Shown here piece by piece: positions 26,339 through 45,001 of a DNA stretch of 64,000 nt (the first letter of the stretch is position 1; each line of letters starts with the position of its first letter). Source of the stretch: Candidatus Methanomethylophilaceae archaeon. GTDB taxonomy: Archaea > Thermoplasmatota > Thermoplasmata > Methanomassiliicoccales > Methanomethylophilaceae. Both the position numbers and the translations under genes were made by a program. Location of the stretch: the NCBI GenBank assembly GCA_050950505.1, contig JBMNHS010000001.1, forward strand, positions 832,001 to 896,000, given 5' to 3'. The notes below the pieces were generated by a model that saw nothing but the letters and a program-made list of their open reading frames with translations, searched no databases and had not been told where the DNA came from.

Positions 26339-27193
26339 TCAGGTTATGGCATCGCGGTTGGATTTTCCCACAAAAAATACTTCAAGACCGTCTATCTCTT
26401 CATTATAAGATATCCGGGCATTCATTTGAAACACCTTTTCAAGATTGTCGGAAGTTATCACGTCCTTTGTGTTCCCGAGGGCTACAATCTCTCCGTTTTC
26501 CATGATGATGGTTCTGTCACAGTATCTTGCGGCCAAAGATATGTCGTGCGTAACCATTATCACGAGAATGTTGCGTTGTTTGATTGTTCTTTTCAGGATG
26601 TCCATAAGTTCGAATTGATGGTTTATGTCCAGATGCAATGTGGGCTCGTCCAACAAAAGAATCTCGGGATTTTGGGCCAAGGATTGTGTTATCATGACTC
26701 TTCGCCACTCGCCCCCGCTCAGTTCGTTAACGGGTCCTTCAGCAAATCCCAAAATTTCTGTTTCCTTCATTAAAGAATATATTTCTCTCAATTCTTCAAC
26801 AGAATTTTCTTCGACTTCCCCTTTGTTCGAATAGCGTCCCATCCGCACGGTTTCCAACACGGTAAAAGGGAAAGAAGCAACGGAATTCTGTTCCACCGTC
26901 GCAAGAATCCTGGATCTTTCCAAATATGAAAAATCCAATATGTCGAAAGGACCGTCCTTTTTCGCAACGTTATCGAGGATATCTTTTGAAAAGTGATCGA
27001 CGGTCACCGATCCTTTTTTGGATCTGTATTCCGAATTGATGCAATTCAGCAATGTGGTTTTACCGGAACCGTTCTGTCCCAGTATAGCGATAATTTCTCC
27101 GCTGTCGACAGAGAATTCCACATCTTTCAGTATGTCGGCAGATCCGATGCTGAAAGAAACCCCGTTCACTTTCAGATTTACCAAATCAAACAC
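26339..27193 (-). CDS. Fe-complex/cobalamin ABC transporter ATPase
   Basis: GQNGSGKTT, LSGGE, LLLDEPT, HD motif. Confidence 0.92.
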   Translation of the reverse strand: MFDLVNLKVNGVSFSIGSADILKDVEFSVDSGEIIAILGQNGSGKTTLLNCINSEYRSKKGSVTVDHFSKDILDNVAKKDGPFDILDFSYLERSRILATVEQNSVASFPFTVLETVRMGRYSNKGEVEENSVEELREIYSLMKETEILGFAEGPVNELSGGEWRRVMITQSLAQNPEILLLDEPTLHLDINHQFELMDILKRTIKQRNILVIMVTHDISLAARYCDRTIIMENGEIVALGNTKDVITSDNLEKVFQMNARISYNEEIDGLEVFFVGKSNRDAIT

Positions 27194-28241
27194 TCCATAT
27201 GTCTTTCTCCCTCTTTCTCATTATATACATAAAAAACGGAGCACCGATTATTGAAGTGATTATGCCCACCGGCAGTTCGTACGGAGGCATCAGAGAGCGT
27301 GCTATTGTGTCAAACAACATCATGAACAAAGCCCCGCCGAGAATACACATCGGTCCCAGATACTTATGGTCGGGTCCGCATATCGTTCTGAAAATATGGG
27401 GTATAATCAATCCGACAAACCCTATTATTCCGCATACGGATACTGAACTTGCCACAAGAAGGCAGGTTCCGACTATAAGCATAATTCTTACATTTTTGAC
27501 ATTCACTCCCAGTGCCTTTGCCTTCCTTTCCCCTCCGGCTATAAGATTCAATTCCCTTGAATTGTACAGGACGAGTATTGAACCGACAATAGCAGATACG
27601 GCAATTATTTTCACCGAAGCCCAATTGCATTTTTCGAAACTCCCCAAAATCCAGAATACAATGCTGGACACGGTATCGGCATCAGAGAAAAATTCAATTG
27701 TCGAGGTCAATCCGCTGAACAATGCGTTTATGGCCATACCGGAAAGAAGCAACATGATGGTGTGCGTTCCTCTCTTCTGATATGCCAGTCCGTATACCAA
27801 CAACATGGTAATCCCGGACATAATGAATGCAAAAATCGTTGTTCCGTATGTTATCTGGAATACGCCGTATCCTACCGCAATATACAATGCGGCTCCGAAT
27901 GCGGCGCCGGAAGATATGCCCAATATGGAAGGCGATGCCATCGGATTCTTGAAAAGAGCCTGCATACACATACCGCTAAGCGAAAGAGAAGCTCCCACTA
28001 TTGCGGCACATATCAGTCGGGGTATTCTTATTTCTTTGACGATGTAATTCTGACTCCAACTGGCACGTCCCATCATGGCATCGATGACAATTTCGAAATC
28101 CAGATCAACGGAACCTACGAATATACACGTAAAGAATACGGTAACCATCAGCGCAAACGTTACGATGAGCCCCACGACGGCTCTGCGTTTTATTTTCCTG
28201 TCTACACTGATCAGATGGTTCAAGTCATGCTCTTCCGTCAT
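27186..28241 (-). CDS. FecCD/BtuC-family permease
   Basis: RIPR, QALFKNPMASP, GIIGFVGLIIPH, LPVG. Confidence 0.93.
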   Translation of the reverse strand: MTEEHDLNHLISVDRKIKRRAVVGLIVTFALMVTVFFTCIFVGSVDLDFEIVIDAMMGRASWSQNYIVKEIRIPRLICAAIVGASLSLSGMCMQALFKNPMASPSILGISSGAAFGAALYIAVGYGVFQITYGTTIFAFIMSGITMLLVYGLAYQKRGTHTIMLLLSGMAINALFSGLTSTIEFFSDADTVSSIVFWILGSFEKCNWASVKIIAVSAIVGSILVLYNSRELNLIAGGERKAKALGVNVKNVRIMLIVGTCLLVASSVSVCGIIGFVGLIIPHIFRTICGPDHKYLGPMCILGGALFMMLFDTIARSLMPPYELPVGIITSIIGAPFFMYIMRKREKDIWSV

Positions 28242-28260
28242 GAAGATGCACCAAAGAGGG

Positions 28261-28286
28261 CCTGAAGGGGGATGTGCCCCTTCAGG
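28261..28286 (-). other. 10-bp intra-operon stem-loop between binding protein and permease
   Basis: CCTGAAGGGG-N6-CCCCTTCAGG perfect inverted repeat. Confidence 0.6.
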
Positions 28287-29436
28287 TTGAGGGTACTCTC
28301 ATTTTTTCATCCATGGTTCTGGAGTCCGAAAGATAGAAGATTATTATATCGGGCTTTTCGCTGACTATTTGTTCATCAGAAAGCTTCGAATCCATCAATT
28401 CAAGATAATCCGCTATGTTTTTCAAATCCAGTATGTCGGTAAGCAGATTCGTAATGAGGTTTTCGGATCCGGCGGCCTTTCCTGCCGCTGTTTCGACATA
28501 GACCTTTTTCTTACTTTCAAGTTGCATTTTTGATATGGCATCCTTCATGACGTGAATTTTTATCTGGATGTTTTCTATGAAATCCTGTGTGTTATCTATA
28601 CCCAAAAGAGTGCCTATCATTTCCGTGTTGCTCATAACCATGCTTAGTGAGTTGGAAAGAACAAATACGAATTTTACTTTCCCGCCTGTGTTACTTTCGA
28701 TTGTCTGAACGGTGCTTTCTGTAATTTTGGCATTTGTGGATCTTATGTTGTACTCGGTCATGAGTATGACGATATTTTCATCTTCGCCGCATTCATCCGC
28801 AAGTTGTTGGGAGTAAGTCATAAGATTCTCTCCAAGATCGAAAATCAAAATACCCTCGGGAACGTCGATTGAGAAATCTCTTTCCAAGGCTGTCTTACAG
28901 TCTGCCGGCATGCCGACTACGATTTCCCATAGTTTTGCAGTTGCCAAAGGACTGTTGTTTTTGGTCTCATCGAACTTTGCACAAAGTATGTTGTAAATGG
29001 TATCGACGTACGCAGCGGTGTAGCAAACGCATTTTTCGGGTATGCTGTCAATCGTTGTTGTGGCATTGGGTCCTGTTTTTCCCGTGCTGGATGAATTAAA
29101 AGTACCGACTTCCAAAGAACCGTCGGGATTAACGGTAACGCAACTGTCAAAATTCAAGGCCGATCCGGCAGTTATATCATCCATTGTCACGCCCTCCGTC
29201 GAAGGCAGATTGCCATACGCACCTTTATACAGGTCGTCAAGGAGAGATATCAGACTGGGTGTCGAATTGGAGTAGGCTCCGTTAATTTCCAGTACGGTCG
29301 GATTCCAGGAATAAAATCCCCCTCGGTTTTCCGGTTCATCTGTATTGTTTTCTTTATTGCCGAACGAGACATATGTTGCGGTGCCTGCAATAACAAGTAT
29401 AATTATCGTTGCAATTGCTATGGTTTTGCGGTTCGC
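28282..29436 (-). CDS. Membrane-anchored ABC substrate-binding protein (helical-backbone type); start codon anomalous
   Basis: Frame stays open 5' of the track ORF and adds NRKTIAIATIIILVIAGTATYV anchor; C-terminal SDEQIVSEKPDIII. Confidence 0.75.
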   Translation of the reverse strand, partial: ANRKTIAIATIIILVIAGTATYVSFGNKENNTDEPENRGGFYSWNPTVLEINGAYSNSTPSLISLLDDLYKGAYGNLPSTEGVTMDDITAGSALNFDSCVTVNPDGSLEVGTFNSSSTGKTGPNATTTIDSIPEKCVCYTAAYVDTIYNILCAKFDETKNNSPLATAKLWEIVVGMPADCKTALERDFSIDVPEGILIFDLGENLMTYSQQLADECGEDENIVILMTEYNIRSTNAKITESTVQTIESNTGGKVKFVFVLSNSLSMVMSNTEMIGTLLGIDNTQDFIENIQIKIHVMKDAISKMQLESKKKVYVETAAGKAAGSENLITNLLTDILDLKNIADYLELMDSKLSDEQIVSEKPDIIIFYLSDSRTMDEKMRVPST

Positions 29437-29464
29437 CCCAACACATACAGCAAGAATTATTTAA

Positions 29465-29489
29465 AGAGTTGGACTACTAATCCAACTCT
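29465..29489. promoter_or_regulatory. Operator box 1 (binding protein 1 operon)
   Basis: AGAGTTGGA-CTACTAA-TCCAACTCT perfect 9-bp arms next to minus-strand TTTAAATA. Confidence 0.75.
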
Positions 29490-29642: not shown

Positions 29643-30020
29643 TCACTTGGGAACGTCGGTCTGCGAGCAGTCCAACGGAGGTCCCGTTTCGTAAAGAGGC
29701 GGAGGCTTGCTGCGAACCGCATCGATAACGCCGTCAGGAACCTCGAGAAAGTCCACAAGATCCTGGTTGGAAACGTATTCACCGCTGGTGATTATCGCTC
29801 CCATGAATTCCGCGATGGGCAAAACATCGAAGCCTTCTTCCTCTACGAGTTCTTGGGCCTCGCCGTCACCTTTAACATCGGCGGCAGACTTGCAGTCAAC
29901 ATATTCCACTTTGAAGCCCTTCTTCAGAAGGGCATCCATAGAATCTTTGAACCTGTTGTAGTCGGAAGCGTACTTTTTACGGGCTGCTTCCGAATCATAG
30001 ACTATGATGACATTGTCCAT
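29643..30020 (-). CDS. ArsD-like protein lacking the Cys triad
   Basis: ELVEEEGFDVLPI...GAIITSGEYVSNQDLVDFL resembles the ArsD C-terminal half. Confidence 0.6.
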   Translation of the reverse strand: MDNVIIVYDSEAARKKYASDYNRFKDSMDALLKKGFKVEYVDCKSAADVKGDGEAQELVEEEGFDVLPIAEFMGAIITSGEYVSNQDLVDFLEVPDGVIDAVRSKPPPLYETGPPLDCSQTDVPK

Positions 30021-30211
30021 AAAATTGTGATGTCTCTGAATCTTATATTTTACTTTTGTATTCTTATGCCGTCTCTGTTGTACATTAAAGTACATATCAT
30101 TCTCAATATGTTCATTATCAATTTTAACGGAATCCCGATATTTTTTGAGATTGCGTTTTTATTTTTATAAAAAAAGCGAAGTTTATTCCCTTGCGGCGGG
30201 ATACGGATACA

Positions 30212-30904
30212 ATGTCAGTTTTCAAAAACATAAAAAGTTCCGAAGTATTTCGGCTGAAGAATCTGATTGCGGAAGGAAAAGGCCAGACAATCAGTTACGG
30301 CATGCTGGACAACTCCGATGTCACGATTTACATGTATTTCTTTGACGAAGGAGAGGGAATAAGCGAGATGAAGTCCCCGTTCCAGAACCTGATCAAAGTT
30401 TTGGACGGAAGGTTGAGAATCGAAGGTGAATCAACCGCGAAGCTGGATGCCGGTGATATATATGTCGTGCCCCACAACACCGATGTGGTGATCACCGCCG
30501 CAAAATCTGTTAAGTACCTGAGCATATTACTTCCCATGGAAGGCCAACTTATCAAAAACATAGATCTGTCGACCAAACTGATGGCGAAGGAACTGATTGA
30601 TTACCGCCCCGGACAGGTTGCCAATCTGACTCTGGTGAACAAGCCCGGTCTCAACTTATCGGTCATAGCCATTGACGAGGGGGAAAGTCTCAAAACCCAC
30701 ACGGCCCCCGGCGATGCCATGGTCATTGCTCTTGACGGTGAAGCAAACATCACCATCGCCGATGAGGAATTCACCGTGAGGGAAGGCGAAACGATTGTCA
30801 TGCCCAAAGATATCCCTCATGCGGTGTTAGGAGTCACTCCGTTCAAGTTCCTGTTGGTTTTGGTGAAGGACGCCGAAGCGAAGAAACCGATAACCCCGAA
30901 CTGA
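30212..30904 (+). CDS. Bicupin protein
   Basis: Two cupin repeats; second retains HTAPGDA...IPH. Confidence 0.85.
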   Translation: MSVFKNIKSSEVFRLKNLIAEGKGQTISYGMLDNSDVTIYMYFFDEGEGISEMKSPFQNLIKVLDGRLRIEGESTAKLDAGDIYVVPHNTDVVITAAKSVKYLSILLPMEGQLIKNIDLSTKLMAKELIDYRPGQVANLTLVNKPGLNLSVIAIDEGESLKTHTAPGDAMVIALDGEANITIADEEFTVREGETIVMPKDIPHAVLGVTPFKFLLVLVKDAEAKKPITPN

Positions 30905-31090: not shown

Positions 31091-31172
31091 GGATAAATTC
31101 TTGATTGGGTTTTTCAATATATACTTTTTCATCAATTTTGTAATCTCTTGGATTACAAAAGCGGAATAGCCA

Positions 31173-31763
31173 TCAATAGTAACCCAAAATGGCGGCTCTG
31201 GCAGTTACATGTTTCATCTCGGGGGCCTTTCTGTTTATCCCGATGATGGCACTGGAACAGCCCGCACCCGATTCTACATCGAAATGTTCCCTCAGCATAA
31301 TGTCCGTATATCTGCCGGGATAGAACAGCGAAGCGGATTCCACATCTGGATCGTCCTTAAGGAAATCAGTCTTTATCGGTTTCATGACAACGGCAACGGG
31401 ACATTCTGTGACTCTGTTGGAAAACAGCACAAAGTCTTCCGCAAGCCATATGTTATGGACACAGGCGGAATAGGTATCTTTCATGGAATGATCAATCATC
31501 TTACCTATTTCGATTCCCAGATTATCATAAATCACGATGGAGCCGTCCATGTGCTGTTCAAATAAACCGTTACTGAAAACACATACCACATAAGAACTTT
31601 CAAGACACACTTTTGCGGCCTGATTGTAAAATGGCATTCCCAACCATTCTCTGGCGAGGGATTCTTCTCTTATGACTCCGTAAAGAGTCTTTGCATCCAA
31701 TATGTGTGCCTCGGTGACATTCGGATGACTCTTGATTGTCTTCAAAGTGTTTGAGATTTCCAT
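31173..31763 (-). CDS. Hypothetical protein (paralog of 12616-13155)
   Basis: Intact ORF with its own operator/TATA; shared GMP, IWL-DFVL, FYP-TD motifs. Confidence 0.8.
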   Translation of the reverse strand: MEISNTLKTIKSHPNVTEAHILDAKTLYGVIREESLAREWLGMPFYNQAAKVCLESSYVVCVFSNGLFEQHMDGSIVIYDNLGIEIGKMIDHSMKDTYSACVHNIWLAEDFVLFSNRVTECPVAVVMKPIKTDFLKDDPDVESASLFYPGRYTDIMLREHFDVESGAGCSSAIIGINRKAPEMKHVTARAAILGYY

Positions 31764-31779
31764 TGGGGGTGTATTGTTG

Positions 31780-31798
31780 GATGGATATATAATCCATC
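31780..31798. promoter_or_regulatory. Operator box 2 (contains TATA of 31763 gene)
   Basis: GATGGAT-ATATA-ATCCATC perfect 7-bp arms. Confidence 0.75.
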
Positions 31799-31864
31799 TG
31801 TTTTAATCACCATGAATTTCATTCAATTCCGGGATGTCTGTTCAGATAAGTCCGATCCTTAAAT

Positions 31865-32611
31865 TCAAACCTTTTTGGTTTTTACCAGATAGTAATTGAT
31901 TGCATAAAACAGTAAACAGAACATAATCATAACGATAAACGAGAGAAGGGGGAAGTTCCACCCTAAAGCCCCGGCTCTTATACACTCGCTGGCGTGGGTG
32001 AGGGGAATCAGATACAACAATTTTTGGAATATATCAGGCAATATGGAGACCGAGAAAAACGTTCCGCACAGGAATGTCATGGGGAGAATCACGAATGTAT
32101 TGAAGACCGCCATGCTTTGATGGGTCTTCGCCAGCAATGCGGCCATTTCCCCCAACAGCGCGAAGGTCAAACAGGACAGCATGAGACAAGCGATGAACGG
32201 CAATGAAAATATCAGCTTATCAGTCAGGAGCAACCCCAAGAGAAAAATCAACAGACAACTTATGAGACCTCTGATGAATCCGAGAATAGCCTTGCCGATT
32301 ACTATCGAAGACGTTCGCAAAGGACAAATCATCATTTCATCAAAACTTCTGTAATACAGTCTTTGCACATTCAGACGGGTGGCGGTGGAAGAGAAAGAAG
32401 CGTTCAAAGAAGAAAGTGCCACAATACCGGGTATTATGAATGCGATGTACGGAACTCCATCCATCTCAACACCTTGACCCATTCCGTATCCGAAGGCAAT
32501 CAGATAAAGTACCGGACTGACAAGAGTCATGGCCATGATGCTGACGAAGTTATGTCTCATGAAACGCAAATCGCCCCATGCCACACTGTAAATCTCCTTG
32601 AGTCTTCCCAT
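31865..32611 (-). CDS. ABC-2 type exporter permease (NodJ/DrrB-like)
   Basis: YIAFIIPG, PMTFLCGTFF, PLTH; about 6 TM segments. Confidence 0.9.
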   Translation of the reverse strand: MGRLKEIYSVAWGDLRFMRHNFVSIMAMTLVSPVLYLIAFGYGMGQGVEMDGVPYIAFIIPGIVALSSLNASFSSTATRLNVQRLYYRSFDEMMICPLRTSSIVIGKAILGFIRGLISCLLIFLLGLLLTDKLIFSLPFIACLMLSCLTFALLGEMAALLAKTHQSMAVFNTFVILPMTFLCGTFFSVSILPDIFQKLLYLIPLTHASECIRAGALGWNFPLLSFIVMIMFCLLFYAINYYLVKTKKV

Positions 32612-33480
32612 CAGTTTTTCACCGTCCTTCCGGTAAGTTCGACGAAACAATCTTCCAGATTTGTTCTTCTGATCAGAATTTCTCCGTTGGTCATACTGTT
32701 GCCGTATTCGGACGCGGAAGCCCGGTCGGGAAAATATTTGTAGACTGATTTACCGTCGGGATCGGTTGCCACGACGGTGAATTTACCTAAACTTTCCGAC
32801 AGATCCGACGGAGTGCCGTCGGCGATTATTTTGCCGTTGTCTATTATGCCGACCCTGTCGCACAGAGCCTGAGCCTCTTCGATGTAGTGAGTCGTGAGAA
32901 ATACGGTGGTGCCGTCTTTGTTCAGCAACCGTATGAGTTCCCAAAGCAAACGTCTGGCTTTAATGTCTAATCCGACAGTGGGTTCATCAAGGAATATGAT
33001 TTCCGGCGAGTGAATTATGGCACAAATTATGGAAACTCGTTTTTTCCATCCTCCGGACAAGGAGTCTATTTTGCTGTCGAGATATTCATCCAATGAGAAA
33101 TATTCGATAAGTTCCGCGATTCTTTCTTCTCTTTTATTTTTTGGAATTTGGTGCATCAACGCCCTGTGACGCATGTTTTCCATGACCGTCAAATCTTTGT
33201 CGAGGCTGATATGTTGCTGTATGACGCCTACGCTGACTTTTGCCTTCATAATGTTCTTTTTCAGATTGTGGCCGTTGATGATTACGGTCCCGCCGTCAAA
33301 GTCTGTCAATGTCGAGAGAATTCTTACTGCTGTCGTTTTTCCGGCTCCGTTAGGTCCGAGGAAGCCGTATATTTCCCCCCTCTTCACTTTCAGGTCGATG
33401 CCGTTCAATGCGACCTTCTGGTCGTATCTCTTCACAAGATTTTCAGCAATGATTATGTAATCTTCATCAGACATACCCAC
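32611..33480 (-). CDS. ABC exporter ATPase (NodI/DrrA-like)
   Basis: GPNGAGKTT, LSGGW, LDEPTVGLD, TTHYIEEA, LEDCFVELTG. Confidence 0.92.
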   Translation of the reverse strand: MGMSDEDYIIIAENLVKRYDQKVALNGIDLKVKRGEIYGFLGPNGAGKTTAVRILSTLTDFDGGTVIINGHNLKKNIMKAKVSVGVIQQHISLDKDLTVMENMRHRALMHQIPKNKREERIAELIEYFSLDEYLDSKIDSLSGGWKKRVSIICAIIHSPEIIFLDEPTVGLDIKARRLLWELIRLLNKDGTTVFLTTHYIEEAQALCDRVGIIDNGKIIADGTPSDLSESLGKFTVVATDPDGKSVYKYFPDRASASEYGNSMTNGEILIRRTNLEDCFVELTGRTVKN

Positions 33481-33523
33481 AAACCCCGTGCAAATCTCTC
33501 GCCGTATGCGTTAAGTCATATAC

Positions 33524-33542
33524 ATTGGATATATAATCCATA
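33524..33542. promoter_or_regulatory. Operator box 3 (exporter operon)
   Basis: ATTGGATATATAATCCATA. Confidence 0.75.
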
Positions 33543-33601
33543 TTGTGGCTGATCAATTTATGAATCTCCTATTCTGATGGAAATTCCATAACAATAAATA
33601 A

Positions 33602-33620
33602 ATTGGACTATATATCCAAT
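33602..33620. promoter_or_regulatory. Operator box 4 (importer ATPase 33644)
   Basis: ATTGGACTATATATCCAAT. Confidence 0.75.
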
Positions 33621-33643
33621 CAAGTGGCGGAGGATTCTGCGGA

Positions 33644-34501
33644 ATGAAAATCATTATCGATAATATCGAATTCGGATACACGAGCACACCCGTTCTTAGG
33701 AACATAGAATTGGATCTCGGGGGAGCACAACTCGTTTCGATATTGGGTCCGAACGGAGTGGGAAAATCCACCCTGATTCACTGCATAAACAATATTCTGA
33801 CTCCTTCATCGGGTGTGGTTACCGTCAACGGTAAAGACATAACTTCGTTCAAGCTCAAAGAATTGGCCAAAATCATGGGATACGTTCCTTACTCTTCATC
33901 GGACAGATTCCCCCTCACGGTAGTCGATACCGTTTTGATGGGAAGGCATCCCCACAGCAACTGGAAGTCCACGGAAAAAGATTTGGATGTGGTTTATGAC
34001 ACCCTGGAATTGTTGGGGATAGAGGATTTGGCCATGAGACCGTTCAATGAACTGAGTGCGGGACAACACCAGAAAGTCATGCTGGCCAGGGGATTCGCCC
34101 AAGAACCTAAAGTTCTGCTTTTGGATGAACCGACCTCGAATCTTGACATCCGGCATCAGATGGAAGTGACCATGCTTCTGAAGGAAATGTCCGTAAGAAA
34201 AGGAATTCTGGTCATAATGATAAGTCATGACATCAATATAGCCTCCAAATTTTCGGATAAAATGATATTGATGAGCGAAGGGACCATCTATTCCGTGGGA
34301 ACTCCGGGGGAAGTCATCACCGAAGACAACATACGCAGTGTTTACGGTGTCAATTCAAAAATCATAGATGACGAAGGAACACCTCACGTGATACTGCAAA
34401 ATCCCATAGGGGGATACAGGACCGAGTCCGCGGGAAGCGCAATCGAAAGCACTGTTTTGGACGTCCGTTCGGACAGTGGCGTGCCCGTCACCGGTCGGTG
34501 A
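33644..34501 (+). CDS. Fe-complex/cobalamin ABC transporter ATPase
   Basis: GPNGVGKST, LSAGQ, LLLDEPT, SHD. Confidence 0.92.
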   Translation: MKIIIDNIEFGYTSTPVLRNIELDLGGAQLVSILGPNGVGKSTLIHCINNILTPSSGVVTVNGKDITSFKLKELAKIMGYVPYSSSDRFPLTVVDTVLMGRHPHSNWKSTEKDLDVVYDTLELLGIEDLAMRPFNELSAGQHQKVMLARGFAQEPKVLLLDEPTSNLDIRHQMEVTMLLKEMSVRKGILVIMISHDINIASKFSDKMILMSEGTIYSVGTPGEVITEDNIRSVYGVNSKIIDDEGTPHVILQNPIGGYRTESAGSAIESTVLDVRSDSGVPVTGR

Positions 34502-37500: not shown

Positions 37501-38234
37501 AAGCATTCCCCGTTCCTGAAAAAATATTTTTTTACAAAATCAACGGTTTTCGTTGTACCCGCGCTGCTGCTCGTGACGGCAAAGAAAAAAGGTATGGCGT
37601 TCATTTTTTGTTTTTCGATTTCTCTGATTAAAGCATTTATGTGTTCCAAATTGTCATATATCCACAAGTTGGAAGTGAACATGATGCCAATTGCCGGTTT
37701 GGACAGGTCCAATTCCGAAATATAATCTTCAAAGGTAATGCCTCGTGGAAAATCCGGGTGGTATATTCCGTCGGTCGGCTGTTCAGCAATGTCGGGAAGA
37801 GGAAAGTCGGTTCCGTGCAGTATGTTGTGCAACCAGACAACGGGACCCTTTTCGTTTTCAAATCCTCTGGCGGCAAGATATCTGACCACGGTTTTGTATG
37901 ATTCGTCATCCCCCTTGAACAGATTCCGGTATATCATCGTGACATCGGAATTCCCGCTGATAAGCAATACATAAGCGGAACACTCCCTCAGAACTTTCTC
38001 GTATCTTTCAAATTTTTTGAACCTGTTCGGGTCGGACATGCACCTCACCAGTACCAAATCCGCGTCATTCGTATTTTTCACGAGTTCGTTGTACAGAAGG
38101 ACATCCTCATCCGCATCGTATTCGTTGTAACAGTGCAGTTCCAGTGAAAAACCGAATTCCGAAGCGACGGCTTCCGCAGGTTCGATCATTGTTTTTGAAT
38201 CCGTTGTCTGAATGGAAAGATTGACGATTTTCAT
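34488..38234 (-). CDS. cobN: CobN/ChlH-family chelatase large subunit
   Basis: PEIDG, HVGTHGTLEWLPGK, GEGIQAKRR, LPTGRN, RPRIDV, GLFRD; start MKIV at 38234. Confidence 0.92.
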   Translation of the reverse strand: MKIVNLSIQTTDSKTMIEPAEAVASEFGFSLELHCYNEYDADEDVLLYNELVKNTNDADLVLVRCMSDPNRFKKFERYEKVLRECSAYVLLISGNSDVTMIYRNLFKGDDESYKTVVRYLAARGFENEKGPVVWLHNILHGTDFPLPDIAEQPTDGIYHPDFPRGITFEDYISELDLSKPAIGIMFTSNLWIYDNLEHINALIREIEKQKMNAIPFFFAVTSSSAGTTKTVDFVKKYFFRNGECLVDAIILNSPFSQLFNSREPDEGMKTKDEDNFFKAVTNVPVFQAMTASGGYFDYEASSEGLNKNEIKNQVAYPEIDGQIITVPVSSVGKGLMTAKRALPIPDRIEHLVKLARNWAKLRHTPAKEKKVAILLWQSREDSGRVGNASGLDSIESVYRLLKSMEDEGYNVGVLPENSKGLLQEFLDGVTNDISWTSTRDVEERAIALVNNKEYLIHYDKIPEFNRILMEKSWGPPPGEISVDGGRFVIPGILKGNVFIGYQPMRGLSEQMESLYHDPHAAIPHQYLEYYRWIQNDFGANAVIHVGTHGTLEWLPGKNVGLSGKCFPDVVLDGLPNIYPYIIDDPGEGIQAKRRSEAVLIGHMNPILGRAGGYDDLDSVEVPLQEYLKMSGTVKGDRKTALVESVYEAVKEADMLGDLGLTDTDAEDFETHMPKLHDYISDMKDAIIRNGLHILGKAPENERMDDAVYSLTRMDNGDIRSLRNSFTSLLGIDILECLKNPSVLGSGGRLNSELAEYAEMEFGKLLIEFRNLEYDLEKCLSATEKSYGKLSEDFEKSLVYLCNTLVPNLIKTSDEIKFTMDALAGNFVLPGPSGAPTRGNADILPTGRNYYGTDPGAIPSRASWKVGCGMADQMIEKYVNEKGTYPRDVAFIIWATDIMKTGGDDMAYILWLMGVRPVWSRTGGQIIDLGIIPLSELKRPRIDVTVRITGLFRDTFPNLIDMIDDAVNLVSELDETDEENYLSANLRKDILNKIERGMSAEDARAESSVRVFGSAPGMYGPGINHAIESGNWETAQDLADIYVAWGSYGYGRKFRGVPMKNQFIQRFGSAEITVKNMPDREFDVIDIDDVYGYLGGLNAFVKSYGNKDAMSVIGDGSNPENTKIRHTEEELSFVFRSKVFNPKYLDGLKQHGYRGVSEIANLTEYLIGWDATSDAGDDWMYRGILEKFLEDTDTREWMKDENPFAMMSILERLQEAINRGLWNATEDEKRRVAELFMQTEERIEEVTDR

Positions 38235-38247
38235 AGTCCCGACTCTG

Positions 38248-38266
38248 ATTGGATAATACATCCTAT
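38248..38266. promoter_or_regulatory. Operator box 5 (cobN)
   Basis: ATTGGATAATACATCCTAT, one mismatch to the core consensus. Confidence 0.65.
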
Positions 38267-38384
38267 TCCGATATATAGTATCCTTTTTCTGAATTTGAAC
38301 GGAAATTTCGGAAGATATCAAACAAGTTCGGACACACCTTTCGGCGAACCGGCAAGAATCGGGAAAGAACCGTGAAAGACAATA

Positions 38385-38403
38385 GATGGATATATAATCC
38401 AAT
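38385..38403. promoter_or_regulatory. Operator box 6 (chlI-chlD)
   Basis: GATGGATATATAATCCAAT. Confidence 0.75.
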
Positions 38404-38427
38404 ATATGTTCTCCGTTTTGATTGGAA

Positions 38428-39456
38428 ATGACGGTCAAACAATATTTTCCCTTTGCGGCCATCGTGGGACAGGAAGAGATGAAACGGGCATTGCTTCTCA
38501 ATTTGGTCGACCCCGGCATAGGCGGAGTTCTCATCAAAGGGGAGAAAGGTACGGCAAAGTCCACCGCAGTACGTTCCCTCAGTCAGATTATGTCTGAAAA
38601 AACAGTTGTGGAGGGATGTCCTTTCGAATGCGGATACGACGGGGACCGGGGATATTGCCCTTATTGCGAAGAACGGTTGTCTGACGGTGAGGTGCTCAAC
38701 CCCGTATATGTAAAAACCAGAGTCGTCGAATTGCCGCTGAATGCCACCGAAGACCGCGTGGCAGGCACACTGGATGTGGAGCATATTCTGAAAATCGGTG
38801 AAAAGAAATTTGAACCGGGAATATTGGCGGACGCAAACGGCAATGTATTGTATGTGGACGAAGCAAACCTACTGGATGATCATATTGTGGATATGTTGCT
38901 GGACTCGGCAGCCATGGGCGTCAACTATATTGAAAGAGAAGGTGTGTCGTTTACCCATCCCGCAAGGTTTGTGCTGATAGGAACCATGAATCCGGAAGAG
39001 GGGGACATCAGACCTCAGCTGATGGACAGATTCGGCCTTTCCGTGGATGTCAGAGGCGAAAAAGACACGGAATCCAGGAAGGAAGTAATCAGACGCGGAA
39101 TAATGTTCCACGAAAATCCTGAAAAATACATCGAACTCTTTGCGGAAGACACAACGGAATTGAAAAATAAGATATCGGATGCCCGCAAACTCAGAACTTC
39201 GGTTACTTACAACGATGACGTTCTCGATGCTATCGTTTCGGTCACGACCCATTTCGGTGTCGACGGTCACAGGGCGGATATAACGCTATTGAAGGCGGCG
39301 ATTGCCAATGCGGCCTTGGAAGGCAGAAACAAAATCACGAAAGAAGACATATCGGTTACCGCACCCCTGGTCATTTCACATCGCATGCGCAGAAGACCTT
39401 TTGAAGAAACATCCTTCGACAAAGAGGAGCTCGAAGAATGCCTGAAGGCATTTTAA
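38428..39456 (+). CDS. chlI: Chelatase AAA+ subunit ChlI/BchI-like
   Basis: FPFAAIVGQ, GEKGTAKST, TEDRVAG, YVDE, MNPEEG, DRFG. Confidence 0.93.
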   Translation: MTVKQYFPFAAIVGQEEMKRALLLNLVDPGIGGVLIKGEKGTAKSTAVRSLSQIMSEKTVVEGCPFECGYDGDRGYCPYCEERLSDGEVLNPVYVKTRVVELPLNATEDRVAGTLDVEHILKIGEKKFEPGILADANGNVLYVDEANLLDDHIVDMLLDSAAMGVNYIEREGVSFTHPARFVLIGTMNPEEGDIRPQLMDRFGLSVDVRGEKDTESRKEVIRRGIMFHENPEKYIELFAEDTTELKNKISDARKLRTSVTYNDDVLDAIVSVTTHFGVDGHRADITLLKAAIANAALEGRNKITKEDISVTAPLVISHRMRRRPFEETSFDKEELEECLKAF

Positions 39457-41327
39457 AATTCCCCCTTTCGGCAGTTTACAAAGCCGACGAAGCAAAAAAA
39501 GCAGTGTCATGCGCCGCAATCGATCCCGGAATCAAAACTATATTGATCCGAGGTCCACCCGGAACTGCCAAGTCAGTCATTGCTAAATCTTCGGGAGACG
39601 TATTGGGAAAGAACGTCGTGAACATACCGTCAAACACCTCCGAGGGGGATTTGTTCGGCGGTGTCGATATGGAATCTTCCATCAAAGAAGGCAGAATTGT
39701 GCCGCTTGAGGGTCTATTGGCTTCCGCCCACAGAAATGTGGCGGTTGTAGACGATGCGAATCTGATGGATAGGAAAACGTTGTATCAGCTTCTTGATTCG
39801 GTTATTCTCGGAAGGGTGGAAGCGGAGAGGGAAGGAGTATCCGTATCGTATCCCTGCGATACGGTTCTGATAGCAACTGCATGTTTGGAAGAGTCCGACA
39901 TGCCCCTTCATTTACTGGATCGTTTCGACATATGCGTTCATACGAAATCCATGGAAGATAAAAATGTGAAAACCGAAATTCTGAGGAGGATGAACGGTTT
40001 TTCAAACAATACAAAGGAGTTCATCAAGGAATGGGACGGAGAAAAGGAATCCAATCTGTCAAAAATATCCAATGCCGTGAAAATATTGCCTCTGATTACC
40101 GTCTCGGATGAATTTCTGACCATTATGGTTGAACTGTGTGAAAGGATGGGCGTCGACGGCCACCGGGGAGATTTGGCCCTTTTCAGAGTTTCCCGGGCTT
40201 TGGCGGCTCTGGCGGGAAGGGACGAAGTCATCACCGAAGATGTGGAAGCGGCCGCAATAATGTGTCTAGCCCACAGAAGACGGATTTATCCACCGGATCC
40301 GGAAGAACCGGAAGTTCCCGGGGAATCCCAGCAGGACGAAAAACCGGAGAATCCTGATAATCCTGAAAAGCCTAACGAACCCGAAGATAAAGAACCGAAT
40401 GACTCCGAAAACGAAGAAAGCGAACATGATGACAAGGAGGAAACAACGCCCCCATCCCCGGCACCGAATTTTGACGATATGATGTTCAACATAGGGGAGC
40501 AGTTCCGCGTGATAGATTTTCTTACCGGCGTACCGGAAAAAATTGAACGGTCCAATGCGGACAAAGGCAAAAGAAAACGGGCGGTCAGTACCGACGGTTC
40601 GGGAAAATATTCCAACTACGAAGTTCCAAAGGGCCGTTTGACAGATTTGGCTCTGGATGCCACAATACGTTCGGCGGCGCCTTACCAGAAGTACCGGGAT
40701 CCCGGAAAACTCGCCATCGCAATAGAGAAACAGGATCTGAGGCAAAAAGTACGGGAAAAACGAACTGGGGCCACAATAATGTTCGTAGTGGATGCCAGTG
40801 GATCCCTGGGTGTCAGAAGGAGAATGGAAACGGTCAAAGGTGCGGTTCTTTCGATGTTGAAAGACAGTTATGTCAAAAGAGACAAAATAGGCATGATGGC
40901 CTTCAGAAGAACGTCTGCGGAATTAATACTGCATCCGACTCATTCGGCGGAATATGGGTATAAAAAATTAAAAGATCTGCCCACAGGCGGTAAGACGCCC
41001 TTGTCCGATGGAATAGGTTCGGCAGCAAAATTCATGTCATCTTACTCCCGCTCGCACACGGGTGAAAAATGTTATATCGTTTTGATAACGGACGGCAGAG
41101 CAAATGTTCCCTTGAAAGAGGGGGCTGATGCAAACGAAGAAGTTTTGGAAATAGCCGAAAAAGCGATTATTCCCGGATTGAAGTGGATCGTCATCGATGC
41201 ATCCGCAGGTTATGTGAAATTTGATAATGCCGAAAAACTTGCCGAAAAGCTGCAGGCAGCATATTTCAGTATAGACAATCTCAATGCCGATAAATTGGCC
41301 GGCAGCGTAAGAATGGTCGTCGATTGA
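39438..41327 (+). CDS. chlD: Chelatase subunit ChlD/BchD-like (AAA, acidic Pro linker, VWA)
   Basis: GPPGTAKS, E/P/D-rich linker, DATIRSAAP, VDASGS MIDAS, TDGRAN. Confidence 0.92.
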   Translation: MPEGILKFPLSAVYKADEAKKAVSCAAIDPGIKTILIRGPPGTAKSVIAKSSGDVLGKNVVNIPSNTSEGDLFGGVDMESSIKEGRIVPLEGLLASAHRNVAVVDDANLMDRKTLYQLLDSVILGRVEAEREGVSVSYPCDTVLIATACLEESDMPLHLLDRFDICVHTKSMEDKNVKTEILRRMNGFSNNTKEFIKEWDGEKESNLSKISNAVKILPLITVSDEFLTIMVELCERMGVDGHRGDLALFRVSRALAALAGRDEVITEDVEAAAIMCLAHRRRIYPPDPEEPEVPGESQQDEKPENPDNPEKPNEPEDKEPNDSENEESEHDDKEETTPPSPAPNFDDMMFNIGEQFRVIDFLTGVPEKIERSNADKGKRKRAVSTDGSGKYSNYEVPKGRLTDLALDATIRSAAPYQKYRDPGKLAIAIEKQDLRQKVREKRTGATIMFVVDASGSLGVRRRMETVKGAVLSMLKDSYVKRDKIGMMAFRRTSAELILHPTHSAEYGYKKLKDLPTGGKTPLSDGIGSAAKFMSSYSRSHTGEKCYIVLITDGRANVPLKEGADANEEVLEIAEKAIIPGLKWIVIDASAGYVKFDNAEKLAEKLQAAYFSIDNLNADKLAGSVRMVVD

Positions 41328-41409
41328 ATACTCAATCCGAATGGCTTTCACAGATTTTATTTAGAATAAATAATAAAAAGTAAGAAGTTTTCAGATTCCG
41401 AACGGTGAA

Positions 41410-42744
41410 TCAGGACGCCTTGGCCGTGTCGTAATCCGCCTTGGTTATGGTGGTGGTCATATCCAATTTTACATCAAAGCTTCCGTCGGGACCGGTTCCT
41501 TCAAGGTAACCGAGGAATGCATCCACATATTCCTGGAATATTTTATCGCCGAATCCTTCTTCGAACAATTCAGGATAGAATATCTCGGCACAGTATGCGA
41601 CTCTGCAGGGGACAGGCATACTGGCATTGATGAATACCATGTTTCCGTCAATGTATGCTTTGCCTGCGTGCAAATAACTGTTATTTGCATTTTCCCAGGT
41701 TTCTACAACATCATCGACAATATAGTCTCTGGTTCTGAAACTTATCATCCATTCGGCGGCATCGAACATTGTGATTGCATCTTCAGTTTCCAATTTTGAG
41801 GATGTGTCACCGGGGAAAATGGTTAAGTTGTTTCCTCCGGCAGCCTCAGTAACCTGCGTGTAAGCGGAATCAATTTCGGTTATGTAACGCCACATGGTCA
41901 ATGAAATGCATTTAACCTTTTCATCATCGGAAAGATCCTTCAGCTTGTTATCAATCATATCATACAGCGCATGAGTTTTTTCGTAGTAATCTCTGGCCTG
42001 TTCTTCCACTTCGGTACCGAGCAATACGCCTATGGTGAGACAAGCATTGACCTGATCTATGGGGGCTGAGCACTTGATTCTCAGAACGGGTATGCCTGCG
42101 GCATTAATATCATCGATTTTATCGGAAACGGCGGCATCCGTCATTGCAAATATTGCGCCGATACCGCCCTCCTCATGCAGGTCTGCATCCAGCGCGATAA
42201 GGCCACTGTAGTTGGCATTATTTATTTCCCTTGTACCCGCAAGTTTTGTAGCGCCCGCATCGACAACAACCTGCTGTTCCACGGCGTAATTGCTTGCAAC
42301 AAATCCTGCAATACTGTTTTCACCGCCGATCAGTATGAACATGGACAGCATATCCGCATTGACGGTAACCACATTTTTCAAAGGATACTGTACTTCAATG
42401 ACAGACTCGTTCTGATCGATCACAAAAGCTTTGGTGGGCTCACCGTCGATAATATTTTGAACGATTTTCCTATCGGCCGCAGTGACCTTTCCGTCATTGT
42501 TCGCATCGGCGAATTCATAATCGGACAGTTCCTTTTTACCGTCGATTATGTCATTGATTATATCTATGTCATCTTGGTCTATACGATCGTCCTCGTTGGC
42601 ATTACCCAGTATGGGCAAAGACGTGTGAGGTACGTAATCTCCGGAACCGCCGCTTCCTTTGTAAAGGAACACCCCGGCACCGATGACCGTAGCGGCTATG
42701 ACAAGGATAGCCGCAATGATCAGAGTCATATTTTTATTGTTCAT
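41410..42744 (-). CDS. Membrane-anchored ABC substrate-binding protein with dockerin-like Ca-binding repeats
   Basis: N-terminal TM; GNANEDDRIDQDD and DANNDGKVTAAD repeats; AEIFYPELF end motif. Confidence 0.85.
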   Translation of the reverse strand: MNNKNMTLIIAAILVIAATVIGAGVFLYKGSGGSGDYVPHTSLPILGNANEDDRIDQDDIDIINDIIDGKKELSDYEFADANNDGKVTAADRKIVQNIIDGEPTKAFVIDQNESVIEVQYPLKNVVTVNADMLSMFILIGGENSIAGFVASNYAVEQQVVVDAGATKLAGTREINNANYSGLIALDADLHEEGGIGAIFAMTDAAVSDKIDDINAAGIPVLRIKCSAPIDQVNACLTIGVLLGTEVEEQARDYYEKTHALYDMIDNKLKDLSDDEKVKCISLTMWRYITEIDSAYTQVTEAAGGNNLTIFPGDTSSKLETEDAITMFDAAEWMISFRTRDYIVDDVVETWENANNSYLHAGKAYIDGNMVFINASMPVPCRVAYCAEIFYPELFEEGFGDKIFQEYVDAFLGYLEGTGPDGSFDVKLDMTTTITKADYDTAKAS

Positions 42745-42754
42745 ATTACACCTA

Positions 42755-42773
42755 CTTGGATGTATAATCCAAC
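42755..42773. promoter_or_regulatory. Operator box 7 (binding protein 2)
   Basis: CTTGGATGTATAATCCAAC. Confidence 0.75.
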
Positions 42774-42844
42774 TTATAATAATCCACTCCATATTAAGCC
42801 GTTTCGCATCTACAGATTAAAGGAAAAAAATCATTGTTATATAT

Positions 42845-42863
42845 GTTGGACATATTATCCAAC
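42845..42863. promoter_or_regulatory. Operator box 8 (permease pair)
   Basis: GTTGGA-CATATTA-TCCAAC, 3 nt before the ATG. Confidence 0.75.
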
Positions 42864-42866
42864 CAA

Positions 42867-43943
42867 ATGAGGGATAACGTTAGTAAATTTGAAGAATACC
42901 GAAGGGGAAATTCCTCCAAAATACTCTTCATAATCGTGTGCGTCGTGCTGTTGTTGATAGCGGCGCTAGTGTCCCTCTCAGTCGGAACAAGAATAGGATT
43001 CGGCAGAACTGCCGAGGTTGTGTTCAACCATTTAACCGGAGTGACGTATCCCAAAAGGTCGCCAGAATGGTGGGAAGATTACTATATTTTTCAAAACGTA
43101 ATGCCTGAAGTCGTGGTGGCGATCATAGCGGGAGCGGGTCTCGCAGTCACCGGAGTCATCATGCAGAGCATAATGAACAACCCCTTGGCAGATCCATACA
43201 CCACAGGTATTTCCTCAGGCGCCAGTCTTGGAGCCGTAACTGCCATAATAATGGGTTACACATTCAGTTCCATCGCAGGTGAAATGGGCATTGTGTCCAA
43301 TGCATTCATCGGCGCAATGGTTCCAGCGCTGATTATTATTCTGTTATCGAAACGAGTGGGCAATTCTCCGGCGACGATTATCCTCATTGGTACTGCAATC
43401 TCATATTTCTTCAATGCTTTGACAACGCTGATTATGATTACCGCCGATTCTGAAGCCCTCCAATCGGCGTATATGTGGCAGATAGGCAGTGTTGCCGGTG
43501 TTTCATGGAGCAGCATACCTTTGATGCTGGTAATTGTGACGGCTTCTTCGATTTTTGCAATTTTGCTTTCCCGATCGTTGAACCTTATGACATTGGGTGA
43601 TGAAAGCGCAAGATCGCTGGGTATGGATGCGGAAAGGCTCAGGATGGTATGCATCATGGTTTCTTCATTTCTCATTGCGTCCATCGTCAGTTATACAGGA
43701 ATAATAGGATTTGTAGGTCTGGTTTCCCCCCATATAGTAAGATTTGTTGTAGGAAGCGACAACAGATTTGTTATCCCCGCATCAATAGTCGCGGGGGCGC
43801 TTTTGCTCACGGTGGCGTTGATGCTGTCCCGCTTGCTCAATTCCTTCGGATACATTCCGATAGGTGTGGTCGTTTCGTTCATAGGGGCACCCATATTCCT
43901 GTATCTCGTGGTCCGGGACAAGTCGGGGAGGGAGATATGGTGA
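42867..43943 (+). CDS. FecCD/BtuC-family permease
   Basis: NPLADPYTTGISSGA, GIIGFVGLVSPH. Confidence 0.92.
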   Translation: MRDNVSKFEEYRRGNSSKILFIIVCVVLLLIAALVSLSVGTRIGFGRTAEVVFNHLTGVTYPKRSPEWWEDYYIFQNVMPEVVVAIIAGAGLAVTGVIMQSIMNNPLADPYTTGISSGASLGAVTAIIMGYTFSSIAGEMGIVSNAFIGAMVPALIIILLSKRVGNSPATIILIGTAISYFFNALTTLIMITADSEALQSAYMWQIGSVAGVSWSSIPLMLVIVTASSIFAILLSRSLNLMTLGDESARSLGMDAERLRMVCIMVSSFLIASIVSYTGIIGFVGLVSPHIVRFVVGSDNRFVIPASIVAGALLLTVALMLSRLLNSFGYIPIGVVVSFIGAPIFLYLVVRDKSGREIW

Positions 43944-45001
43944 ATTCCAAATCCTTGCAGAAGAAAATGTACCTGTCTTCTGCCCGTAAAAAAATAATGT
44001 TCATATTATTATGTGCGATACTGACGGTTATTGTATTCATATACTATCTCAAAGTGGGATTTTATTCGACGACCATGTCGGATATTTTCGAAATAATATC
44101 CGCGCATTTCACAGGCAAAGAAGTCGATTATCAGGCAGATTTGATTATATGGGGTAAAAGAATCCCTCGTGCAATAATGGCCGTATTCTGCGGAGCCAGC
44201 CTTGCGGTCGGAGGGGCAGTTATACAGACGGTGTTAAGAAATCCCCTTACGGATTCTTACACCACAGGCATATCTTCCGGAGCCTTTCTCGGAGTAACGT
44301 TGTTCCTAATACTGGATATATCGTTAATCCCATCCGCTCAGAACCTGTCGCTAGTGTTCAATGCCTTTTTGTTTTCATTGATACCTGTTGCCGCAATATT
44401 GGTGGTTTCAGGAAAGAAGCGGGTGACGGCGTCCAGACTGATACTCACCGGAATAGCGGTCATGTATTTGTTTTCGGCAACGTCGACTTTGCTGATGGTT
44501 TCGACAGACCATGAGACTCTCTCCGAAGCATATTCCTGGAGAATAGGCACGCTTGCAAACACCGGTTGGATATCCGTACCCATTGTCGTGACGGTCACCG
44601 TCATATGCATTCTGTTTCTGTTCAGCAAATCCAGGGAATTCAACATTGTTTCGGCCGGCGAGAAAGTTGCACAATCCCTCGGTGTCAATTCGAAAAAAGT
44701 CACCGTCATGGCTTTGATTGTCGTGGCCTTCATGACGGCGAGTTCCGTCAGTTTCACGGGAACAATAGGATTCGTCGGACTGGTCGCTCCTCATATCTCA
44801 AGAATTTTCATTGGATCCGATTGCAGATATCTGATCCCGGCATCGGCCTTCGTCGGAGCTTTGTTTTTATTGTCAATGGATGCAATTGCGAAAGTTTCCG
44901 GAGATTTGGGACTGCCTGTGGGAGTCATCAGTGCACTGATAGGTGCGCCGCTGTTCGTGATAATTCTGGTAAAAAACAAAAAAACAGCCTGGGATATATG
45001 A
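43937..45001 (+). CDS. FecCD/BtuC-family permease
   Basis: RIPR, RNPLTDSYTTGISSGA, GTIGFVGLVAPH; GGAG RBS. Confidence 0.92.
   Translation: MVNSKSLQKKMYLSSARKKIMFILLCAILTVIVFIYYLKVGFYSTTMSDIFEIISAHFTGKEVDYQADLIIWGKRIPRAIMAVFCGASLAVGGAVIQTVLRNPLTDSYTTGISSGAFLGVTLFLILDISLIPSAQNLSLVFNAFLFSLIPVAAILVVSGKKRVTASRLILTGIAVMYLFSATSTLLMVSTDHETLSEAYSWRIGTLANTGWISVPIVVTVTVICILFLFSKSREFNIVSAGEKVAQSLGVNSKKVTVMALIVVAFMTASSVSFTGTIGFVGLVAPHISRIFIGSDCRYLIPASAFVGALFLLSMDAIAKVSGDLGLPVGVISALIGAPLFVIILVKNKKTAWDI

Follow-up and report, generated by a model that had tools for sequence, protein, structure and literature searches.

We describe a chelatase-transporter module in a Candidatus Methanomethylophilaceae archaeon (assembly GCA_050950505.1, contig JBMNHS010000001.1), located at positions 26339-45001 of a window of 64,000 nucleotides, the whole stretch of DNA analyzed here, which spans positions 832001-896000 of the first contig of the genome (G000:C1). 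The block encodes the three subunits of a class I tetrapyrrole chelatase (CobN, ChlI and ChlD), two importers of the BtuFCD type and a candidate exporter of the ABC-2 type, and each of these transcription units is preceded by a copy of the same palindromic operator. We tentatively favor the interpretation, in which our confidence is limited, that the block encodes an ATP-driven chelatase for cobalt (or nickel), coupled to uptake and induced when cofactor or metal is scarce.

The operator is a 17-base-pair (bp) palindrome, TTGGAY-N5-RTCCAA (TTGGA-N7-TCCAA), with an AT-rich core, and is present in eight copies in the block (Table 1). In agreement with an earlier annotation made by a model from the letters alone (hereafter, the sequence-only reading), one copy was found ahead of every listed unit. 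The copies end 5 to 51 bp 5' of the start codons, beside or across TATA-like boxes, a placement that would fit a site where an archaeal repressor blocks TBP or RNA polymerase. An initial pattern with a spacing of 8 yielded chance matches only and was discarded, whereas a loose version of the present pattern, with one mismatch allowed, matches 12 times in the window versus 4.0 matches expected. A matrix built from seven of the window sites gave 16 genome-wide matches of at least 20 bits, compared to a mean of 0.2 in the 20 local shuffles that served as the control, and nine of these 16 stem from sites outside the training set of the matrix. One match, at C1:899489, sits within a cas3 frame and may be due to chance.

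Operator-like sites (at most one mismatch, AT-rich core) are present in 15 of the 18 related loci that we compared, many of which are short contigs. In at least seven loci (L013-L016, L020, L024 and L030), where the identity of CobN to that of the block ranges from 48 to 89%, such a site lies just 5' of CobN or ChlI. Palindromes in promoter position beside CobN are shared with loci from other genera (for example, L014, 730/821; L015, 9973; L016, 9047/9128; L020, 9964; L024, 2579; L030, 9891/9973) at which protein identity is only 48-56%. The operator is absent from the window-equivalent native locus in two genomes, G078 and G048, and in the literature searched we found no description of the operator or of the chelatase-transporter module. 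The 428-amino-acid (aa) winged-helix protein encoded at 25021-26307 was considered as the regulator of the module and rejected, since genomes of the same genus that have no module at this place encode it there as a native gene and it was found in none of the 18 related loci.

Outside the block, the divergent cbiD-cbiG-cbiJET and cbiL-cbiF-cbiH-cbiC operons flank a copy of the operator, and the operator precedes sirC-hemA and, as a weaker site of 16 bits, the cfbC-cfbA-cfbE-cfbD cluster. It is also found on one of the two mtaCB copies, on a stand-alone NifH-like gene, on two NifH-NifD fusions with NifK-like partners, and on several further FecCD importers, most FecCD importers being marked by it. 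The sites in the genome are at C1:79731, C1:117449, C1:199183, C1:980101 and C1:1026950 on the first contig and at C2:10266, C2:22300/22343, C2:27259 and C2:126710/127756 on the second. Because the operator is shared with cbi, sirC-hemA, cfb and nitrogenase-like genes, we conclude that these genes form a tetrapyrrole-cofactor regulon, in which the operator marks the genes for sirohydrochlorin-derived cofactors and their supply; no iron-regulon signature was seen among the operator-carrying genes. A corrinoid/F430 frame for the block is well supported, whereas a heme frame is not. The corrinoid-linked role, mentioned by the sequence-only reading as a simpler alternative, is the better supported one. 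An argument for a corrinoid signal based on the alternation of B12-independent NrdD and B12-dependent NrdJ was set aside, the target of the operator at this place being ambiguous (194 bp from the start of nrdD and 133 bp from a winged-helix open reading frame); a class II-type reductase gene is present in the genome.

The assignment of the chelatase is supported by the family matches of all three subunits, which bear out the earlier claim that the enzyme is complete. The large subunit scores 894.6 bits against the CobN equivalog TIGR02257, above the cut-off of 822.05, and 732.1 bits against BchH, below the cut-off of 829. Among solved structures, the scores are 658 bits (Mycobacterium tuberculosis) and 596 bits for CobN, 460 bits for ChlH and 358 bits for HmuS, with the match to HmuS (9d26) split over two stretches. 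A histidine, a glutamate and an aspartate of the large subunit align with H554, E593 and D1100 of CobN chain 9uk9_A, residues named as the proposed metal site in a preprint (10.64898/2026.07.21.739949), on the assumption that the preprint numbers residues as in this chain. ChlI and ChlD are complete, matching TIGR02030 and TIGR02031 over their full length. With a large subunit, a motor and an adaptor, and the metal-site residues, the trio can be classified as a predicted class I tetrapyrrole chelatase. The N-terminus of CobN, as read from the translation, contains no hydrophobic export or anchor segment.

CobN is encoded by a single copy in the genome. Two more ChlI-ChlD pairs, with no CobN nearby, lie at C1:150065-151911 and C1:1161820-1164674 (L044 and L045), one of them between MttB-like and ammonium-transporter-like genes. 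In one relative, the gene for a DUF169 protein separates those for CobN and ChlI (L017, 9268-10011). CobN paralogues in three relatives contain one or two in-frame TAG codons (G092:C1:1098652-1102323, G098:C1:48721-52434 and G106:C17:104859-108575), which may be read-through sites or signs of broken genes; this lineage is known for pyrrolysine.

The genome (1.33 Mb in two contigs, 99.6% complete), that of a methyl-reducing methanogen of the Methanomassiliicoccales, carries MtaB and MtaC, the cfb cluster and methanogenesis markers. It encodes a complete early-cobalt cbi ring pathway with two a,c-diamide synthases, including the early-route markers CbiD and CbiG, along with the late and salvage genes for CobT, CobY, CobS, a CbiZ/CbiS-like protein, CbiB and CobD. 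Only one gene of the CbiX type is present, a tandem two-domain version scoring as CfbA (C2:28148-28873; L005, 10122-10901); given its place within the cfb cluster, it may act in the insertion of both cobalt and nickel. The full cbi set and this tandem gene support the earlier statement that CobN is not needed for de novo synthesis.

To place CobN within the order, we used a sample of 121 genomes, G000 included, each at least 85% complete. CobN is present in 50 and CbiD in 74 of these genomes, co-occurrence counts that, like the others given here, are suggestive only, the related genomes not being independent. A role of CobN as the sole cobaltochelatase of the cbi pathway is ruled out by the tandem CbiX/CfbA and by 31 CbiD-positive genomes without any CobN. 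Among the 120 other genomes, 32 have window-type CobN, defined by an identity of at least 50%, and CbiD is present as well in 31 of these 32. A second type, with 40-43% identity, is encoded in a ChlI-ChlD-CobN operon without transporters and is the only CobN in six CbiD-negative genomes; with regard to the idea that this CobN replaces CfbA, CbiX was found in three of the five tested genomes with the second lineage. In the available text of three publications, the role of archaeal CobN homologues is acknowledged as unclear or guessed to be salvage (PMC12583661, PMC8305020, PMC9227772).

The linkage of importer, chelatase and exporter is real and is kept across Methanomassiliicoccales loci, including the conservation of the exporter, on which the sequence-only reading had staked its proposal. 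The closest CobN loci come from Methanomassiliicoccales and Methanomethylophilaceae assemblies. Among the 18 related loci, ChlI and ChlD adjoin CobN in nine, the ABC-2 pair in seven, and a binding protein with an ATPase and two permeases in four. In three loci (L017, L021 and L025), the ABC-2 genes and CobN are on one strand, with gaps of 12-20 bp, and in L039, a homologue of the ATPase encoded at 33644-34501, with 61% identity, sits between a binding-protein gene and two permease genes.

The module is accessory and horizontally mobile. In the same-genus genome G048, the full module is found at another locus, and its CobN is only 55% identical to that of the window compared to 77-84% for flanking housekeeping proteins. 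The window's own locus in G078 and G048, genomes of the same genus, contains native genes only, namely those for three proteins of 470, 428 (winged helix) and 125 aa and for a bicupin, then other genes over about 6 kb and the gene for a DEAD-box helicase; same-genus genomes in which the module is missing from this locus nevertheless retain CbiD. Because this native locus lacks the module, the span consists of two insertions, unit A (26339-29485) and the CobN module (31173-45001), and not of the single block that had been proposed. Two genes within the span, at 29643-30020 and 30191-30904 (the latter encoding the bicupin), lack the operator and are native to the locus. The G+C content of the block is 0.43-0.48, versus 0.49-0.52 on its left. 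Near-identical copies of the stretch 33400-43000 are found in landfill, digester, bioreactor, wastewater, sludge and manure metagenomes, with no animal gut run among the listed holders.

Genes were called from Pfam and NCBIfam profile searches, and their starts were corrected from intergenic DNA (Table 1). The open reading frame list had over-extended CobN, ChlI and the first FecCD gene, for which the corrected starts are 38234, 38428 and 42867, respectively; the start of the second binding protein was read as 42744 from the intergenic DNA. The gene list compiled by the sequence-only reading, with the chelatase trio, two binding proteins, three FecCD permeases, two importer ATPases, the exporter and one orphan, held up against the Pfam and NCBIfam matches and the fold evidence, as did the absence of any cob or cbi ring gene inside the block. 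The orphan protein has no Pfam or NCBIfam match and no atlas lead, and no counterpart was found in the 18 related loci. A paralogue of it, with 25% identity and likewise without a family, is encoded at window positions 12616-13155 (plus strand).

Table 1. Genes and operator copies of the studied block, in coordinates of the window
Feature	Position	Strand	Placement	Match or remark
Unit A importer ATPase	26339-27193	-		PF00005, 97.8 bits
Unit A FecCD/BtuC-type permease	27186-28241	-		PF01032, 324 bits; NCBIfam BtuC, 267 bits (cut-off 461)
Unit A Peripla_BP_2 binding protein	28282-~29457	-		PF01497, 29.1 bits; N-terminal membrane anchor
Operator	29469-29485		before unit A	TTGGACTACTAATCCAA, 24.1 bits; adjoins TTTAAATA box
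Orphan protein, 196 aa	31173-31763	-		no family match
Operator	31781-31797		18 bp upstream of orphan gene	20.4 bits
Candidate ABC-2 exporter permease, DrrB/NodJ-like	31865-32650	-		PF01061, 78.2 bits; DrrB, 82.6 bits, and NodJ, 72.8 bits, both below cut-offs
Candidate exporter ATPase, DrrA/NodI-like	32611-33480	-		PF00005, 113.5 bits; best model DrrA, 275 bits (subfamily cut-off 312)
Operator	33525-33541		before exporter operon	23.2 bits
Operator	33603-33619		25 bp upstream of importer ATPase gene (33644)	28.0 bits
Second-importer ATPase (partner of 41410-45001)	33644-34501	+		PF00005, 101.8 bits
CobN large chelatase subunit, 1248 aa	34488-38234	-		PF02514, 1167 bits, profile positions 2-1089 of 1090
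Operator	38249-38265		15 bp upstream of CobN start	21.1 bits
Operator	38386-38402		26 bp upstream of ChlI start	25.7 bits
ChlI-type AAA+ motor subunit	38428-39456	+		Mg_chelatase and AAA_lid_2; BchI-ChlI, 395.8 bits (cut-off 467)
ChlD-type adaptor subunit (AAA+ plus VWA)	39438-41327	+		AAA_lid_2 and VWA_2; BchD-ChlD, 421 bits (cut-off 499.6)
Second-importer binding protein, dockerin-like N-terminal domain	41410-42744	-		relatives and fold model
Operator	42756-42772		12 bp upstream of second binding-protein start	26.5 bits
Operator	42846-42862		5 bp upstream of FecCD permease operon start	26.4 bits
FecCD permease 1, second importer	42867-43943	+		PF01032, 286.9 bits
FecCD permease 2, second importer	43940-45001	+		PF01032, 270.1 bits

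Judging from family matches and a fold model, the importers are of the BtuFCD type (type II ATP-binding cassette (ABC) importers), with FecCD permeases, class III binding proteins and ATPases. No NCBIfam model reaches its curated cut-off for the importers (the BtuC models score 267 versus 461), and the models nearest to the unit A ATPase are those of heme and corrinoid importer ATPases, every one below its cut-off. The second binding protein (41410-42744) has no Pfam match of its own; it has 23 relatives, five of them with PF01497. In its AlphaFold model (predicted local distance difference test score 86.7), the Foldseek matches are class III binding proteins, the best of which are an iron binder, MolA (molybdate), CeuE (Ni-His) and YiuA. 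Heme binders follow from rank 24. The 50 best matches listed do not include BtuF, an absence that is weak evidence either way. These predicted fold similarities lean toward small metal complexes, without deciding the ligand, and comparison of the sequences of both binding proteins with solved structures yielded nothing usable. A dockerin-like calcium-binding repeat, with invariant residues, is present at the N-terminus of the protein encoded at 41410-42744 (minus strand) and of the one encoded at 5292-6578 of L002; this domain may be a surface tether. The frame of the unit A binding protein is open to 29457, but contains no ATG, GTG or TTG upstream of 29190 or before the anchor, and the first codons past the upstream stop are ATA and ATT; the gene may have an unusual start or may be damaged.

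No CbiM, NicO or NikA-type genes were found in the 99.6%-complete genome, and CbiM lies about 4 kb from CbiD in six of the seven other genomes of the same genus. According to the available part of PMC7689651, CbtJKL, a BtuF-like system under a B12 riboswitch, is a proven Co(II) importer.

The exporter combines an ABC2_membrane permease with a DrrA/NodI-like ATPase and, by these matches, is a candidate member of the DrrAB/NodIJ type of ABC-2 pumps. Its linkage was assessed for all 102 homologues of the permease outside G000 with at least 39% identity (five weaker matches were dropped): a CobN start is found within 15 kb of 70 of the 102, and for six more only CbiD is that close. The same pump family adjoins cbiD in genomes that lack CobN, and ABC-2 pumps occur without CobN in G017, G033, G103, G105 and G120. 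Elsewhere in the studied genome (L046, C1:38568-47404), CobT followed by CobY-CobS-CbiZ/CbiS-like-CbiB-CobD is encoded divergently from a DrrA-like ATPase and two ABC-2-like permeases, a second link of corrinoid genes to an ABC-2 pump. We know of no described ABC-2 pump tied to CobN or cbi genes, and none was found in the literature searched either.

Under the model that we tentatively prefer, a putative repressor bound to the 17-bp palindrome, overlapping the TATA box or the transcription start, would hold the module off together with sirC-hemA and the cbi and cfb genes, and a shortage of cofactor or metal would derepress all these units. The two BtuFCD-type importers would take in a substrate, most likely chelated cobalt or nickel, as in the case of CbtJKL and NiuBDE, or an incomplete corrinoid. 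CobN-ChlI-ChlD, presumably in the cytoplasm, would then insert cobalt (nickel being less likely) into a ring of the sirohydrochlorin or corrin type at the expense of ATP, supplementing the ATP-independent CbiX/CfbA, and the linked ABC-2 pump would export some pathway-related compound. In favor of this model are the membership of the block in the regulon, the CobN-type scores and metal-site residues of the large subunit with complete ChlI and ChlD, the conserved linkage, the presence of CbiD in nearly all genomes with window-type CobN and, for the supply of metal, the lack of CbiM, NicO and NikA-type genes, the precedent of CbtJKL and the fold matches to CeuE and MolA.

Several observations weigh against this model. 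The role of the exporter does not follow from forward chelation, although the exporter is the tightest partner of CobN. The one substrate proven for CobN, hydrogenobyrinic acid a,c-diamide, does not arise in the early-cobalt pathway, and CobN is dispensable, given that the CbiD-positive genomes without it include five of the same genus. The possibility that window-type CobN replaces CbiM was rejected because there is no anticorrelation, 24 of the 32 genomes having both. The fold matches of the second binding protein fail to separate metal chelates from tetrapyrroles, no RNA data are among the listed holders of the stretch 33400-43000, and the co-occurrence counts overstate the support because related genomes are not independent.

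A serious rival, because it alone explains the pump, is a demetallation cycle in which unusable corrinoids or other cobalt or nickel tetrapyrroles are imported, CobN-ChlI-ChlD works in reverse with ATP, the freed metal goes to the cbi and cfb pathways, and the empty ring is ejected by the ABC-2 exporter. Under this scheme, which we regard as unlikely on the whole, every part has a job. In its favor are the near restriction of window-type CobN to genomes able to use the freed cobalt (the 31 CbiD-positive genomes of 32), a genome in which no classical cobalt or nickel importers were found, an enzyme that is closest to CobN, whose product is a cobalt corrin, and a landfill, digester and wastewater habitat, where we assume corrinoids from dead biomass to be plentiful. 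To our knowledge, however, no enzyme has been shown to take cobalt out of a corrin. Furthermore, imported corrinoids could be remodelled directly by the CbiZ/CbiS-like protein, CbiB, CobS, CobY and CobT, which makes their destruction less obviously useful. Because the pump family adjoins cbiD without CobN and also accompanies the cobD-cbiB-cbiZ-cobS-cobY cluster, the pump may serve the pathway generally rather than the product of CobN. The precedent of HmuS cuts both ways: in the available text of PMC12583661, it is a CobN-family protein that works in reverse, but one that requires NADH and membranes, not ATP. The import-demetallation-export idea of the sequence-only reading has fared unevenly, with the conserved linkage and the dispensability of CobN in its favor and its heme/HmuS version poorly supported.

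The nitrogenase-like genes of the regulon suggest another possibility, salvage or remodelling of a different reduced tetrapyrrole, such as F430, with nickel re-metallation by CobN-ChlI-ChlD and reduction by nitrogenase-like enzymes. The two NifH-NifD fusions (719 and 714 aa) are both paired with a NifK-like protein and both lie behind an operator; they are encoded at 677-4098 of L008 (C1:976679-980098) and in L002/L043 (C2:126714-134373). The fusion and partner on the second contig lie directly downstream of an operator-bearing operon for a binding protein, FecCD permease and ATPase. Considering the best 41 homologues of the NifK-like partner outside G000 (E-values of at most 1.6e-70, weaker matches being left out), 26 have CobN or the ABC-2 permease within 15 kb, and 14 have the permease within 3 kb; the cfb cluster, moreover, belongs to the regulon. 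On the other side, the nitrogenase-like parts resemble true nitrogenase chains (VnfD, 70 bits; 'Nitrogenase' 9d9u_C, 43 bits) more than tetrapyrrole reductases (BchB of dark-operative protochlorophyllide oxidoreductase, 19 bits), the L008 fusion is about 106 kb away from the block in G000, and the best match of the large subunit is the CobN model, not a nickel-specific family. We found no paper joining nitrogenase-like genes with CobN in methanogens in the literature searched, and we consider this salvage route improbable. A broader version, in which the module and the nitrogenase-like reductases form an archaeal machine that recycles foreign metallo-tetrapyrroles through import of corrinoids or F430-type rings, ATP-driven metal removal or swap and ring export by the ABC-2 transporter, also appears unlikely to us; if true, it would amount to the first enzymatic corrin demetallation and would give methanogens a new way to obtain cobalt and nickel.

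Clustering through shared regulation alone, with importers, pump and chelatase lacking a common substrate, would account for the many unrelated functions that carry the operator, for the shuffling of parts between genomes and for the pumps in the CobN-less genomes named above. We nevertheless judge it rather improbable, given that the pump and CobN share one operon, with the short gaps already noted, in several genomes, and that the set is transferred to new loci as a whole. Finally, harvest of heme iron, in the manner of HmuS and BtuS of Bacteroidota, with heme imported, iron removed and protoporphyrin exported, is highly improbable: CobN-family heme dechelatases do exist (as stated in passages of PMC12583661 and PMC6460266), FecCD importers often carry heme, and heme binders are among the lower-ranking fold matches, but HmuS is the most distant solved relative of the large subunit (358 versus 658 bits for CobN), the export or anchor segment is lacking here whereas BtuS and HmuS act outside the cytoplasm (available text of PMC6460266), the operator places the block among cbi, cfb and sirC-hemA genes and not among iron genes, and the stretch is known from landfill, digester, bioreactor, wastewater, sludge and manure samples, with none of its listed holders from the gut.

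Anaerobic archaea are equipped with ATP-independent chelatases and apparently lack a late-cobalt pathway. The role of CobN in them is a question stated outright in the accessible portions of PMC12583661, PMC8305020 and PMC9227772, and the module provides a concrete starting point to address it, being a defined mobile set with fixed partners (importer, exporter and motor subunits) whose shared operator links it with the synthesis of corrinoids and F430. Because cobalt and nickel cofactors limit methanogenesis, their supply bears on anaerobic digesters, landfills and methane control.

Compared to known systems, the block resembles the class I cobaltochelatase (CobN with CobS/CobT or ChlI/ChlD), with which it shares the three subunits, the CobN equivalog and the putative metal-site histidine, glutamate and aspartate, but it differs by motors of the ChlI/ChlD type, by the linkage to transporters and by a DNA operator instead of a B12 riboswitch, and its host, judging by CbiD and CbiG, probably follows the early-cobalt cbi route, in which the known substrate does not arise. 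The HmuS/BtuS systems of Bacteroidota likewise encode a CobN-family protein with uptake genes, and a salvage idea for BtuS, due to Rodionov, is relayed in the available text of PMC6460266; the block differs from these systems in the predicted cytoplasmic location of CobN, the ChlI/ChlD partners, the absence of a TonB receptor and a corrinoid/F430 rather than iron regulon. The haloarchaeal CobN-ChlID (HVO_B0051/B0050) and the methanogen CobN paralogues are also CobN-type chelatases in early-cobalt archaea, for which the available portions of PMC8305020, PMC12583661 and PMC9227772 describe no module with operator, importer and ABC-2 exporter.

Type II importers such as BtuFCD, CbtJKL, NiuBDE/CeuE and MolBC-A resemble those of the block in the FecCD permeases, the class III binding protein and the ATPase, whereas one importer of the block has two different permeases and one binding protein is dockerin-like. 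The DrrAB/NodIJ exporters share the ABC2_membrane permease and the DrrA-like ATPase; the pair in the block scores below the subfamily cut-offs and is tied to CobN and cbi genes. Bacterial B12-riboswitch regulons, as Rodionov reportedly described in 2003, jointly control ring synthesis, uptake systems and CobN-ChlID. The regulon described here differs from these in the use of a DNA palindrome at archaeal promoters and in its reach to F430 and nitrogenase-like genes, and it may represent a candidate archaeal counterpart, at the DNA level, of the bacterial riboswitch regulons.

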